Shown: positions 39,146 through 52,788 of the stretch, piece by piece | How the letters are laid out: each line of letters opens with the position of its first letter | Position numbering within the stretch: position 1 is the stretch's first letter | Source: an uncultured Gemmatimonadales bacterium | Lineage (GTDB): Bacteria > Gemmatimonadota > Gemmatimonadetes > Gemmatimonadales > GWC2-71-9 | NCBI GenBank assembly: GCA_963730185.1 | Contig: CAVSQW010000013.1 | Location: forward strand, 96,001-160,000 | Length of the DNA stretch: 64,000 bases | Reading direction: 5' to 3' | The notes under the pieces: generated by a model | What the model saw: the letters and a program-made list of their open reading frames with translations, nothing else | Told to the model about the DNA's origin: nothing | Databases searched by the model: none | Translations under genes and position numbers: made by a program

Positions 39146-39718
39146 CTACCGGGGCAGCTTGCCCAGGACGTGCTGCATCACGGCCGTGGCGAGGACCTGG
39201 GCCGAATCCGGCTGGCCCTTGGGAGGATCGGCATTGACCGACACCTGATAGTGCCCGTCGTAGGCCGTGAGGGTCTTGATCTCCGGGGTCCAGTAGGCCA
39301 TCGAGCCCAGACCTTGGACCGGCGCGCTCGCGTCGAGCAGGTCCTGGCCCATGCCCGACACGGCGTCGTCACCCTTGGCGACGGCTGCCTTCAGGTCGTC
39401 GAACGAGGTCGGGGGCGATTCGCTGGCGCTGTAGCGGACCAGCACGCTCAGCCCGCGATACGAGGGCGCCGAATAGAGGCAGTTCGTCACCACGATGCCG
39501 CCGGCCTCGTTGCGCTGGTCGATGCGCTTCTTCCCTTCTCCCACCTCCTCGCCGAGGAACCGGCCGGCGTCGGCGGGCGAGACGATCTGACACACATCGA
39601 TGGCCGGGAGCCCGGCCGGATCGGCGGCCTTGGTCTCGCCGCCGCCCTTGGGGCCGCCGCCACAGGCGCCAAGCAGCAAAGCCAGGGGGAGGAGTCGGAT
39701 CACGGGCGATGAGGGCAT
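39146..39718 (-). CDS. Hypothetical lipoprotein (DUF3558-like)
   Basis: Lipobox LGAC; DVCQIVS...CLY, VQGLGSMAYW; GGAGG SD. Confidence 0.7.
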   Translation of the reverse strand: MPSSPVIRLLPLALLLGACGGGPKGGGETKAADPAGLPAIDVCQIVSPADAGRFLGEEVGEGKKRIDQRNEAGGIVVTNCLYSAPSYRGLSVLVRYSASESPPTSFDDLKAAVAKGDDAVSGMGQDLLDASAPVQGLGSMAYWTPEIKTLTAYDGHYQVSVNADPPKGQPDSAQVLATAVMQHVLGKLPR

Positions 39719-39736
39719 GACGGCCTCCGGGTTGGG

Positions 39737-40823
39737 TCAGTGGGTTCCCGGCTCCGAGAAGCGGAGCAGCTCTTCCAAGTATCGTCCCCAGACGGCCGGG
39801 AGGGAGTGGGTGCCGTGGCCGCGGGTCTGGTCGCTGATCGGAATCAAGAGGTAGCGTCCCCGTTTCACGTGGGTGATCTCCCGCTCCATGATCCCCAGCT
39901 CGGGCGGGTTGACCTGATCGTCGGCGGAATTGATCGCGAACAGAGGCGCCGTGATCGCCTCGAGGTGGGGCGAGGGGTCGTAGTTCCGCGAGGCGTCGAA
40001 CTGGTAGATCAGGTCGTTGGCGTCGAGCCCCGCCGCGTACCGCTTGACCCGGTCGGCCAGAAATCGCTCGGCCGCCTCGCGGGTCGGAGCTTCCTTCTGC
40101 CACTGCAAGCGGGCTCGACACCATGACCATCAGCTCGTGGACCGCCGAGATCAGCCCGTGCGGCTGGGCGGTGTATTCGCCGCCTTTCCACTCGGGGTCG
40201 GTCTCGATGTCGTCGATCATCATCTTCCGCATCATCCGATTCCGGCCGGCGATCTCCACCGGCAGGCTGGCGAGCGGCATCAGCGCGTCCATGAAGTCCG
40301 GGTAGGTATAGCCCCACACCCAGGTCTGCATGCCGCCCATCGACGTGCCGGTTACCAGGCGGAGATGGTTCACGCCGAGATGGTCGGTGAGGAGGAGGTA
40401 CTGGGCCCGGACCATGTCGTCGTAGGTGTACTTCGGGAACCGCATGTGGAGGCCGTCGCTCGGGCGGCTCGACTTCCCGTGACCGATGCCGTCCGGGAGA
40501 ATGAGGTAGTAACGGGTCGCGTCGAGGAGCTGACTCTGGCCGAACAAGTGGCCCCCGAAATTGGCCGAGAGAAAGCCGCGGCCGCTTCCTGTGGTCCCGT
40601 GCATGATCAGCACGGCATTGGTGGTCTTCCCGCTTGGGTCGCGGCGGGGGCTTCCAATGGTGGTGTAGTGGAGCCGGAGCTCGGGCAGGGTCTCGCCCGA
40701 CTGGAACCGGAAGTCGCGGACGACGTAGTCGCCCTCGGTCGGGGTGGGGTAGGTCTCGACCTGCGCGGCGAGCGGCGCCGTCAAGCCGGCCAGCGCGAGC
40801 AGGCCGGGGAGTGGGATGCGCAT
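39737..40823 (-). CDS. Secreted alpha/beta hydrolase of MetX-like fold, 1-nt frameshift at ~40107
   Basis: Signal peptide, HGTTG, GHGKSS, GTSMGG, NSADD, GHGTH. Removing one T (ccg ct[t]g cag tgg) joins ORFs 39369..40850 and 39737..40108. Confidence 0.8.
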
Positions 40824-40968
40824 GAGGTGCCTCCAGCGAGTCGACCTCACGTTAGTCGTTCCCCGCCCCCGGTGCCACTGACCTGCTCAGTCGGCTCCGG
40901 GGGCTGATGCCGGGGCCGAATCGGACCGCTCGGGCCCGGCCGACCGACGGCCGGGGCCCCGGGTGGCG

Positions 40969-42809
40969 TCAAGCGCCCGAGCCGGCCAGCACGTCGAGCG
41001 TCACGGGCACTCGCCCGAGCGGGGCCGACACCTGGGCGCCCTGGACCCGGTCCCGCACCGCGGTCAGCATCTCCCGCGCGATGGCCACACCCTCCGTCAG
41101 GCCGGCTTCCTTCCCCTGGTCGCTGGCCCGCCGCATCCGCTGGAGGATGACGTCCGGCACCGTGACTCCGGGGACCTCGTTGGCCAGGAACTCGGCGTTT
41201 CGGAGCGAGACCAGCGGCCAGATCCCGGCGATGATCGGAATCCGGAAGCTCTCGACGCTGGCGAGGAACCGGTCCAGCTGCTCGAGGTCGAAGACCGGCT
41301 GGGTGATCGCGAACTCCGCCCCGGCCTCGACCTTCCACGCGAACCGGCGGAGCTCCCGGTCCGGGTCCACTGCGGCCGGGTTCACGCCCACGCCGATGAC
41401 GAACCGGGTCGGCGCCCCGATCGGATTCCGGCCCGGATCGAGTCCCGATTGAGCCGCGACACCAGGTTGGTGAGGCCGATCGCGTCGATGTCGAACACGG
41501 CGGTCGCGTCGGGGTAGGGGCCCATCTTCGGTGGGTCGCCGGTGACCAGCAGCAGGTTCCGGAGCCCGGCGGCGGCGGCGCCCAGCAGGTCGCTCAGCAT
41601 GCCGAGCAGGTTACGGTCTCGGCAGGCGTAGTGGGTCACCGTCTCGAGGCCGGTCTCGCGCTCGATCATCAGCGAGGAGAGGAGCGCCCCCATCCGGCTC
41701 TGGGCTCGGGGGCCGTCGGGGACGTTGACCGCGTCGACCCCGGCCACCTTGAGGGCCCGGCACTGCTCGAACATCGGGGCCGGATCGGTGCCCCGGGGTG
41801 GCACGATCTCCACGGTGGTGATGAACTCGCCCCGGGCCAGCTTCCCGCCGTATCGGGAGCGGTCCTTGAGCGGGACCGGCTCGACCCCCGCAAACCCGGT
41901 CTCGTCGGCGCCCGTCACCGCGGCGTGATGCCGGGGCGACACCGACTGAACGAAGCCCACGATCGACTTGACGTGGTCCGGCGTGGTCCCGCAGCATCCT
42001 CCCACGAACTTGGCCCCCGCCTCCACGATCCGGCGGGCGTACTCGGCCATGTACTCGGGCCTCGCCATGTAGATCTTCCGGTCGCCCACCTCGCGCGGTA
42101 ACCCGGCGTTGGGTTGGGCCGAGATCGGGACCGTCACGACCTTCGCCAGCCGCTCCACCACGCCGAGGATGGCCTGGGGCCCGACCGAGCAGTTCACCCC
42201 GACCACGTTGGCGCCGGAGCTCGCCAGGGCCGGTCCGAAGACCTCGGGCTCGGTGCCGTAGGCGGTTCGGCCATCCTCGTTCACGGTCATCTGGGCGATG
42301 ATCGGGAGGTCGCTCACGCTCCGGATGCCCTCGATGGCGGCTTTGATCTCGTTGAGGTCGCTGAAGGTCTCCAGGATGAAGCCGTCGACCCCGCCGTTGG
42401 CGAGCCCCTGGGCCTGGCGCGCGAACGCGGCCCGCGCCTCGGTCACCGCCGTCTCGCCGAAGGGCTCGACCCTGACGCCCAGGGGGCCGATGGCGCCGAC
42501 CACCGCGGCCCGGTCGTCCGCGGCTTCGCGGGCGACCTTGGCCGCCGCGGTGTTCAGGGCCTCGGTCTCGGCCGCGAGCCCGTAGTGGGCGAGCTTGTAC
42601 GGGTTGGCGCCGAACGTGTTGGTCTCGATCGCCTCGGCGCCCACCTTCACGTAGGCCCGGTGAATGTCCCGGACCAGGTCCGGCTGACGGGCTGCCAGCT
42701 CGTCGAAGCAGACGTTGAGGAACACCCCGCGCCCGTAGAGCATGGTCCCCATGGCGCCGTCGAAGACGTGCACCCGCTCGTCGGCGATGAGGTCCGTGAG
42801 GCTGGGCAT
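40969..42809 (-). CDS. yitJ: Bifunctional homocysteine S-methyltransferase / 5,10-methylenetetrahydrofolate reductase (YitJ-like), 1-nt frameshift at ~41445
   Basis: [29 protein letters not shown] part EIVPP, HYACRDRN, VTGDPP, KVEAGAEFAITQPVFD. Adding one G (aat cgg g[g]a ctc gat ccg) restores the frame; AGGAGG SD before ATG 42809. Confidence 0.88.
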
Positions 42810-42858
42810 CGAGCCCTCCTTTCGACGCGAAAGCCCGAGGCTAAAAGGCCCCGGGTGG

Positions 42859-42908
42859 CGCGTTTTAGCGTTTGTTTTACGTGGCCGCAATCAGCGCAAA
42901 TCGCCACG
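42859..42908 (-). ncRNA. SAM-II (SAM-alpha-type) riboswitch aptamer, yitJ leader
   Basis: CGUGGC-GAUUUG-CGCUGAUUGC-G-GCCACG-UAAAACAAAC-GCUAAAAC-GCG: P1 stem, UUU loop, UUGC, A-rich L3 and GCUAAA of the H-type pseudoknot; upstream of a methionine gene. Confidence 0.88.
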
Positions 42909-48660: not shown

Positions 48661-52370
<3,710 letters not shown>

Positions 52371-52385
52371 CGGGGGAATCTCCTT

Positions 52386-52421
52386 AAAGCAAAGCCCGGC
52401 GAGCTAAAACGGGCGCCGGGC
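52386..52421 (-). terminator. Riboswitch expression platform: intrinsic terminator-like hairpin with U-tract
   Basis: GCCCGGCG-(CCCGUUUUAGCU)-CGCCGGGC followed by UUUGCUUU, directly before the metH SD. Confidence 0.7.
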
Positions 52422-52422
52422 A

Positions 52423-52472
52423 TGCGTTTTAGCTGGTTTTTAACGTGGCCGCAATCAGCACAAATTGCCACG
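52423..52472 (-). ncRNA. SAM-II (SAM-alpha-type) riboswitch aptamer, metH leader
   Basis: CGUGGC-AAUUUG-UGCUGAUUGC-G-GCCACG-UUAAAAACCA-GCUAAAAC-GCA; 42/50 identical to the yitJ copy, with a compensatory C-G to U-A change in P2. Confidence 0.88.
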
Positions 52473-52528
52473 GAACCGTCGGTTGTACCGCGAAGATAAG
52501 CAAGCGACGTGCCGACCGAAAGCGGCTG

Positions 52529-52574
52529 TCGTGAGTGGTGAGCAGGGAGTGAGTCGGCGGTAGGGAGTAGCGGG
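52529..52574 (+). repeat. Degenerate purine-rich heptamer repeats (TAGGGAG family)
   Basis: TCGTGAG TGGTGAG CAGGGAG ... TAGGGAG TAGCGGG. Confidence 0.5.
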
Positions 52575-52788
52575 GCGCCGAACCGGTCCGCGGCGCCGAA
52601 GGCTGATCTCCGAGAGCGGACCGCTCGGGTGTTCGGTTCCGGGACGCGGCGTTCCGGAGGCGCACAGGGGGACGTGAGTCCGAGATTGGTAAGCCGTTGT
52701 AGGAGAGTCGCTTACGATTTGAGCATTCGGGCACGGCGTCTGCCTTCCTAGGCACGACGAAGAAACATCCTGGCGGTGGGAGGACGGC

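Follow-up and report, generated by a model that had tools for sequence, protein, structure and literature searches.

The window analyzed here, 64,000 nucleotides (nt) of an uncultured Gemmatimonadales bacterium (contig CAVSQW010000013.1, positions 96,001 to 160,000), contains a gene for cobalamin-dependent methionine synthase (metH) whose leader is probably a transcriptional OFF switch controlled by a riboswitch of the SAM-II class, which binds S-adenosylmethionine (SAM). This prediction follows from the combination of an aptamer, a terminator-like hairpin, and a hairpin apex complementary to the 3′ tail of the aptamer. The aptamer itself is, by sequence and predicted structure, a genuine and ordinary SAM-II. 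For its expression platform we tentatively suggest that, in some Gemmatimonadales genera, the apical loop of the terminator has replaced the strand-sharing antiterminator; the alternative helices would have few or no nucleotides in common and would exclude each other topologically, by way of a zero-length loop, and the plan would serve metH, yitJ-like, and thrC-like leaders.

SAM-II Aptamers and the Genes behind Them

A covariance-model search of the window returned two matches reaching a gathering score, both to Rfam RF00521 (SAM-II, SAM_alpha; gathering cut-off, 36 bits) and both on the minus strand; no other model did so (Table 1). The metH open reading frame (ORF) starts 34 nt downstream of one match; the other, referred to here as the twin, precedes a yitJ-like gene for a bifunctional homocysteine S-methyltransferase/methylenetetrahydrofolate reductase (MTHFR). 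Both scores are barely above the cut-off, and relatives reach 59.4 bits. A third SAM-II of the genome (contig C6:365314-365387, minus strand, locus L001; 39.8 bits) is located 5′ of a thrC-like gene.

RF00521 was also searched in the genome together with 60 relatives, and all 102 hits were fetched and their downstream genes typed. A match is present in 53 of the 61 genomes; the genes 3′ of the hits mostly encode homocysteine S-methyltransferase (MetH or YitJ-like) and next most often thrC-like PALP enzymes, with Cys/Met-PLP enzymes, MTHFR, homoserine dehydrogenase, MetX-like hydrolases, and one MetK as rarer cases. The predicted SAM-II control of metH, yitJ-like, and thrC-like genes across many Gemmatimonadales is a point of some value; the aptamer adds little, its class being well characterized. 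Structural comparisons were based on 49 leaders of one family (f1) situated 5′ of methyltransferase/MTHFR genes, mostly from the same genus and not chosen by any pairing between tail and hairpin. A covariance model of stem P1 and the hairpin only was built from these, and an alignment of 100 leaders was obtained by adding 51 further Gemmatimonadales leaders from a pattern scan (L154 was left out).

As in the metA motif (RF00521), the loop of P1 in the metH leader pairs with the 3′ tail GCUAAA to form a predicted H-type pseudoknot in the leader of a Met/SAM gene; the host is a member of the Gemmatimonadales, in contrast to the proteobacteria and Bacteroidetes of the known motif. In addition to its score and its position, the leader has a P1 closing a loop of ~17-21 nt, the pseudoknot P2, and the conserved AUUUG (L1), UUGC, and tail GCUAAA, which were located from the Rfam consensus alignment and are invariant columns in the relatives' alignment (A1). 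With MetH domains and NF007024 identifying the downstream gene, the original prediction of a SAM-II riboswitch 5′ of metH is borne out. P1 is 99.8% paired in the 100 aligned leaders, five of its six pairs never varying and the sixth being CG, UG, or UA; P2b (UUGC with GC-AA) is present and invariant among relatives, and the tail core is near-invariant. Two sources fix the register of the P1 loop and P2, namely alignment to the Rfam consensus and the covariation of the third P2a pair.

That pair is one of the points at which the two aptamers of the window differ. The metH aptamer (52472-52423) and its twin (42908-42859) are identical at 42 of 50 positions, and six of the eight differences fall in L1 (position 7) and the linker L3 (31, 35, 37, 38, and 39), a count that the original prediction had right. 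The other two, positions 13 and 50 (U52460/A52423 in metH versus C42896/G42859 in the twin), lie in the register of P2a and had been read as a compensatory change directly supporting the pseudoknot. Across 154 distinct SAM-II sequences the third P2a pair forms in 86 (GC 63, CG 19, UA 2, and AU 2), compared with a mean of 65 after permutation and with none of 1000 permutations reaching 86; the P2a register is therefore right, and the third pair covaries family-wide. The pair is thus real, but the U-A/C-G swap between the twins, taken alone, is weak evidence for it; C.C, C.U, and C.A mismatches are common at this position in close relatives.

A Terminator-like Hairpin with an Apex Complementary to the Aptamer Tail

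The metH aptamer is followed by a hairpin of eight G-C pairs (−16.5 kcal/mol) with a U tract directly after it, the G/C stem and U tract upstream of an ORF that define an intrinsic terminator, although its 12-nt loop is longer than usual for one. In the 100 leaders, whose alignment was fitted to the hairpin itself, the stem is 93.8% paired and seven of the eight pairs change on both sides. P1 and the hairpin together have 117 double-change cells versus 30.9 in shuffles (0 of 500 shuffles reach this value), and pairing falls to 28-49% when the partners are slid by 1-3 columns. Judged by this strong covariation among relatives, the hairpin that had been predicted as a terminator is a real structure; the relatives' tract is often U5-U7.

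The tail of the metH aptamer (AGCUAAAACG, 52434-52425) and the hairpin loop (CGUUUUAGCU, 52411-52402) are perfect complements over 10 base pairs (bp), so that pairing between loop and aptamer, proposed earlier at 9 bp, stands with a corrected length. The same tail positions double as the 5′ strand of the proposed antiterminator. Its 3′ strand falls wholly inside the terminator loop and has 0 nt in common with the arms (2 nt in the twin); the strand-sharing arrangement canonical for terminator and antiterminator is thus absent from the metH leader. The twin repeats the plan on a different all-G/C stem, as had been claimed, with a 7-bp complement between tail GCUAAAA (42869-42863) and apex UUUUAGC (42846-42840). 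In the thrC-like leader (L001), the stem CGUCUG/CGGACG is followed by UUUUUCG, and the loop holds UCUUCUUGGC, an imperfect complement of GCUAAAAAG; the loop of its relatives is CUUUUUGGC. The match in the twin is unremarkable by itself, because helices of at least 7 bp occur in 17% of shuffled platforms; the remarkable point is recurrence in relatives.

Recurrence was measured by the longest uninterrupted helix that the tail window can form with the 50 nt after it, with shuffled platforms and a reversed tail as controls. Among the 49 family leaders the helix is at least 9 bp in 34 and at least 7 bp in 45; shuffled platforms reach 9 bp in 1.7%, and the reversed tail gives at least 9 bp in 3 of 49 and at least 7 bp in 7 of 49. 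The complementarity is therefore kept in homologs, as the prediction required, in both leaders of the window and in most close relatives. A stricter classifier (helix of at least 7 bp at the apex of a G/C stem, then at least 4 U in 8 nt) accepts 34 of the 49 methyltransferase/MTHFR leaders of family f1, plus 5 with fewer U, as well as 8 of 18 thrC-type leaders of f1 and 1 of 32 leaders in two sister families. CGUUUURGC is a recurrent motif at the apex of the relatives' hairpins, and more than 20 helix variants with differing flanks keep 8-12 bp (GUCGCUAAAA/UUUUGGCGAC, CCGCUAAAAG/CUUUUGGCGG, GCUAAAACGGC/GCCGUUUUGGC, and AGACGCUC/GGGCGUCU are examples in which flanks vary and length is kept). 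At columns 56/80, 17 rows have CG and 2 have GC, and where the tail is GCUAAGAC, in five metH-type leaders, the loop is GCGUCU, which pairs with AGACGC(UC). The -1 flank pair (columns 45/126) was dropped as general support, being paired in 12 of 99 scored rows.

Several smaller observations concern these leaders. The five with the variant tail (L058, L060, L064, L068, and L076, all metH-type and from same-genus relatives) have GCUAAGAC in place of GCUAAAAC, an A-to-G change in the tail, together with UUUCUGC, not UUUGCGC, in L1/P2a and GCGUCU, not GUUUUAGC, in the hairpin loop. Downstream of the aptamer in L032 (G026), the terminator 3′ arm and U tract are tandemly duplicated, UAGCUUCGGGCUUUCG occurring twice. 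A terminator-like site called by a simple scan on the plus strand of the window (42857-42872) is the antisense of the twin tail and linker (GGCGCGTTTTAGCGTT and TGTTTTACGT), and is most likely an artefact because it is the antisense of an A-rich tail. A consensus promoter scan of the region found no promoter-like site; by eye, a TAnnnT element (TATCTT, ~52482-52499, minus strand) lies ~20-25 nt upstream of P1, with TAGGTT, TAGTCT, TAAGTT, and TACATT in relatives, and an ACAAC(C/U)G motif recurs in relatives ~8-10 nt upstream of P1. These may be the -10 box and the transcript start.

Table 1. Aptamer, platform, and gene features of the two SAM-II leaders in the window
Feature	Position	Strand	Evidence or remark
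SAM-II match, metH leader	52481-52405	-	RF00521, 38.6 bits (cut-off 36), E 3.7e-05, model positions 1-79/79
P1 5′ strand CGUGGC	52467-52472	-	Pairs with 52449-52444
P1 loop: L1 AAUUU; P2a 5′ strand GUGC (52461-52458); P2b 5′ strand UUGC (52454-52451)	52450-52466	-	
P1 3′ strand GCCACG	52444-52449	-	RF00521 alignment; pairing in relatives
Aptamer 3′ tail AGCUAAAACGCAU	52422-52434	-	P2b 3′ strand G52433, C52432, A52430, A52429; P2a 3′ strand 52425-52422
Terminator 5′ arm GCCCGGCG	52421-52414	-	Predicted hairpin stem; covaries in relatives
Terminator loop, 12 nt, CCCGUUUUAGCU	52413-52402	-	Includes the tail complement
Terminator 3′ arm CGCCGGGC	52401-52394	-	Predicted hairpin stem; covaries in relatives
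U-rich tract UUUGCUUU	52393-52386	-	6 U in 8 nt
Shine-Dalgarno-like AAGGAG	52385-52380	-	Outside pseudoknot and hairpin; unpaired in predicted folds
metH start codon AUG	52370	-	
metH, cobalamin-dependent methionine synthase, 1237 amino acids	48657-52370	-	All five MetH Pfam domains; NF007024, 2094.7 bits (cut-off 1497)
SAM-II match, twin, 5′ of yitJ-like gene	42917-42848	-	RF00521, 37.1 bits, E 9.2e-05
Twin platform, stem CCCGGGGC (42855-42848)/GCCUCGGG (42841-42834)	42826-42855	-	All-G/C, 8 bp
yitJ-like gene, bifunctional homocysteine S-methyltransferase/MTHFR, incomplete in its reading frame	41382-42809	-	NF006396, 514.1 bits (cut-off 453), profile positions 9-450/611

Proposed Switching and Competing Explanations

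In the proposed mechanism, the 3′ tail (GCUAAAACG) would be kept in the aptamer pseudoknot as long as SAM is bound, which would leave the hairpin free, and the free hairpin with its U tract would terminate transcription at ~52388-52385, just 5′ of the ribosome-binding site. Without SAM, the tail would pair with the terminator apex (10 bp in metH) once the apex has been transcribed. The terminator 5′ arm would then lie inside the loop of the tail:apex helix, and the 3′ arm would start 0 nt after it; with connecting segments of 3, 2, and 0 nt, coexistence of the two helices would require a pseudoknot in which one connecting loop, the last, is of zero length. Because coexistence needs such a loop, we infer that the terminator would be delayed and that the polymerase would pass the U tract into metH. 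The tail would in effect be contested by two hairpin loops, that of the aptamer, favored by SAM, and that of the terminator. The yitJ-like leader (42917-42826) and the thrC-like leader elsewhere in the genome would follow the same plan. Computed energies are −10.2 kcal/mol for the tail:apex helix alone and −16.5 kcal/mol for the hairpin alone. When the nascent RNA ends at 52402-52396, its minimum-energy fold is the tail:apex helix, and from 52394 on it is the hairpin; a nested model gives 14.5 kcal/mol as an upper bound for the refolding barrier.

A number of results weigh against this mechanism. The full leader is more stable in the hairpin state (−33.1 kcal/mol) than with the tail:apex helix enforced (−26.3 kcal/mol), a difference of ~7 kcal/mol. 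The two metH helices have no nucleotide in common, so that read-through hinges on a kinetic or steric block, and a frayed tail:apex helix and the terminator might coexist as a pseudoknot; topological exclusion in place of base competition is the weakest link of the model. Column-wise covariation between tail and apex is weak (8 double-change cells versus 5.3 in shuffles; 57 of 500 shuffles reach this value), because the tail is invariant, fixed by the aptamer, and for tail:apex counts 51 of the 100 rows had been selected by a pattern containing the core. In the 49 rows, conservation of the apex does not exceed that of the stem arms (mean consensus frequency, 0.84 versus 0.90 and 0.82), and shared descent therefore explains part of the conservation; the argument that loops are conserved where stems drift fails within these mostly same-genus rows and holds only between genera. 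Two of the 49 (L020 and L027) have the apex GUCAUGG, which leaves 4 bp, and keep the hairpin; one (L010) has no hairpin. The U tract of the twin (CUUUCGCG) is weak, with 3 U in 8. A search of sequencing runs for 51800-52600 listed no RNA run, and the DNA runs listed have at most 0.21 of its words in common with it. Whole-leader folding energies are not unusual (z −1.08 for metH, −1.15 for the twin). A terminator scan of the region found 3 sites versus 4.0 expected, with no excess; it speaks neither for nor against the model, because its loop limit (3-8 nt) hides the real hairpin, of which it detected merely a 5-bp sub-stem.

These points bear on a rival explanation, namely that the SAM-II is real and the complementarity between loop and tail plays no part in switching. 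On this view the hairpin would be a stabilizing structure or would attenuate transcription constitutively; control by SAM, if there is any, would take another route, for example RNA stability or Rho; and the motif would have been kept by descent. The weak covariation, the apex conserved no better than the arms, the favored terminator sharing no nucleotide with the rival helix, and the two same-genus leaders that lost the complement and retained the hairpin all agree with it, as does the terminator 3′ of the Sinorhizobium meliloti metA SAM-II, which could not be tied to an antiterminator (PMC9373788). We consider it unlikely, for the motif sits at the apex of stems of different sequence in two genera (own genus, 8 of 8 genomes; genus g31, 23 of 25) and is present in three paralogous leader classes. 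Changes in the loop are, moreover, biased to those that pair: the residue opposite tail U48 is A in 52 and G in 42 of 100 rows, either of which pairs with U (94 of 100), and the GCGUCU loops match AGACGC where the tail is GCUAAGAC. A helix of at least 9 bp is also far more frequent in the leaders than in shuffles. The case for the tail:apex helix rests mainly on conservation.

A second explanation is a translational switch, in which SAM or the hairpin alters access to the Shine-Dalgarno sequence and the U tract is incidental. The best-studied SAM-II, that of metX from a Sargasso Sea metagenome (2QWY), belongs to the same aptamer class and occludes its ribosome-binding site directly, the site lying inside P2 (PMC10907184). 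The metH leader differs in that its Shine-Dalgarno sequence lies ~37 nt beyond P2, with hairpin and U tract between; AAGGAG follows directly 3′ of the U tract, which is compatible with translational control, but it is outside P2 and hairpin and unpaired in predicted folds, and a hairpin with a U tract, often U5-U7 in relatives, is the anatomy of an intrinsic terminator. On this balance a translational switch at metH seems quite improbable. The hairpinless L010 (G030, 1509-1611), a yitJ-type leader, has GGAG directly 3′ of its tail and CUG where relatives have AUG; control here may be translational, from a start codon other than AUG.

Thirdly, the loop could be a site at which a protein acts in trans, or at which the tails of the other SAM-II leaders pair, terminated leaders then serving as small RNAs. 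In one genome the tail and its loop complement are the same in three leaders, and terminated SAM-II leader RNAs accumulate in S. meliloti, where a role in trans was proposed (PMC9373788). The cis partner in the metH leader, however, is 14 nt upstream and is transcribed first, and pairing in trans is in our view highly improbable. We favor the SAM-controlled terminator as the working model for metH.

Distribution, Comparison with Known Systems, and Gene Neighborhood

The arrangement was mapped in an even sample of 401 Gemmatimonadales genomes (G000 included), scanned with two patterns, one for the core SAM-II and one that also demands UUUURGC within 8-30 nt; being exact, the pattern gives too low a count of variants. 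The core was found in 155 of 186 genomes of family f1, 112 of 187 of f2, and 21 of 27 of f3, and the core plus UUUURGC in 65 of 186, 3 of 187, and 2 of 27, respectively (the f2 counts include genome G326, in which the first pattern matched and the second did not). Of the 104 genera sampled in the order, 27 have the longer pattern, mostly within a single family; the own genus and g31 are rich in it, and four other well-sampled genera of the own genus's family lack it entirely (0/10, 0/17, 0/11, and 0/17). A pattern scan of the public species collection gave at least 118 loci, and among the 80 matches listed, 59 are from Gemmatimonadota, Gemmatimonadales, or Gemmatimonadetes, 12 from Bacteroidales, Bacteroidia, or Alistipes, and 7 from (alpha)proteobacteria. 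In an unselected alphaproteobacterial sample, SAM-II is present in 30 of 41 genomes; of the 30 leaders fetched, 28 were analyzed, among which the complement occupies the hairpin loop twice and the 5′ arm twice. The loop-located arrangement is thus rare in the alphaproteobacterial sample and sporadic outside the Gemmatimonadales. Judged from these pattern matches, the platform characterizes some Gemmatimonadales genera but not the lineage as a whole, and the suggestion of a lineage-specific SAM-II subtype is not upheld: the aptamer is ordinary, and the platform alone is distinctive.

The leaders from Bacteroidales and Alphaproteobacteria (L109 and L124, for example) show what sets the platform apart. 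They too have a tail GCUAAAA that complements a downstream UUUURGC beside a hairpin and U tract. In these, UUUURGC is the terminator 5′ arm and the tail sequence recurs in the 3′ arm (GGGGCUAA-U7, GCCAAA..CCGGG-U7), which amounts to the usual strand-sharing antiterminator, whereas in metH and its twin UUUURGC caps an all-G/C stem as its apical loop, with 0 nt (metH) or 2 nt (twin) in the arms. The transcriptional preQ1-I riboswitch of Bacillus subtilis queC is a further small H-type pseudoknot in which the 3′ tail switches between pseudoknot and antiterminator; that antiterminator has a strand in common with a terminator arm, and ligand and fold details differ from those of SAM-II.

SAM-II was described as the metA motif (Corbino et al. 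2005, PMC1273637). Terminators after it were noted at discovery and read as OFF switches (PMC1273637, PMC2258182), and by 2007 termination was the most frequent predicted SAM-II mode, in alpha- and beta-proteobacteria (PMC2258182), so that these papers speak against the initial description of terminator-linked SAM-II as the less studied mode; structural work on SAM-II centers on the translational metX example (PMC10907184). The SAM-II of S. meliloti metZ likewise is predicted to cause premature termination on SAM binding, in another host and at another gene, and a terminated leader RNA of ~100 nt is seen there on Northern blots (Scheuer et al. 2022, PMC9373788). Genes behind alpha-proteobacterial SAM-II include metY, metA, metX, and hom (PMC4239095), compared with metH, yitJ-like, and thrC-like genes here. 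A literature search returned no paper pairing SAM-II or "SAM riboswitch" with Gemmatimonad*; for a loop-located antiterminator, none was found by titles, abstract starts, and passages, and figures and supplements outside that search (such as Figure S1 of PMC9373788) may show a comparable model. The idea of a spermidine-sensing variant was set aside, the source paper dealing with SAM-I variants and not SAM-II. The SAM-II class and its terminator mode were accordingly known from 2005-2007, and the geometry of the platform alone appears to be undescribed. If the proposed mechanism is true, it would be a natural case of terminator control by steric or topological exclusion in place of strand competition, useful for models of co-transcriptional folding and for the design of compact synthetic switches, and such a compact platform would be missed by riboswitch annotation based on secondary structure.

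The yitJ-like gene behind the twin changes frame: its 475-amino-acid ORF (41382-42809, minus strand) covers the S-methyl_trans domain and MTHFR profile positions 6-113, and MTHFR positions 151-260 continue in another frame, within the overlapping ORF 40969-41391 (minus strand). Either the frameshift is genuine or the assembly is in error here. Directly 3′ on the same strand is a gene for a MetX-like alpha/beta hydrolase (39369-40850; NCBIfam PRK06489, 367.7 bits), which may belong to the same SAM-II-controlled operon. The metH-type and yitJ-type leaders are 9.6 kb apart in the window, and many same-genus genomes likewise have them on one contig and strand, separated by 5-17 kb (for example, G016:C14, G007:C31, G021:C15, G006:C2, and G003:C3); because the two leader types lie close together in so many of these genomes, the neighborhood is conserved.

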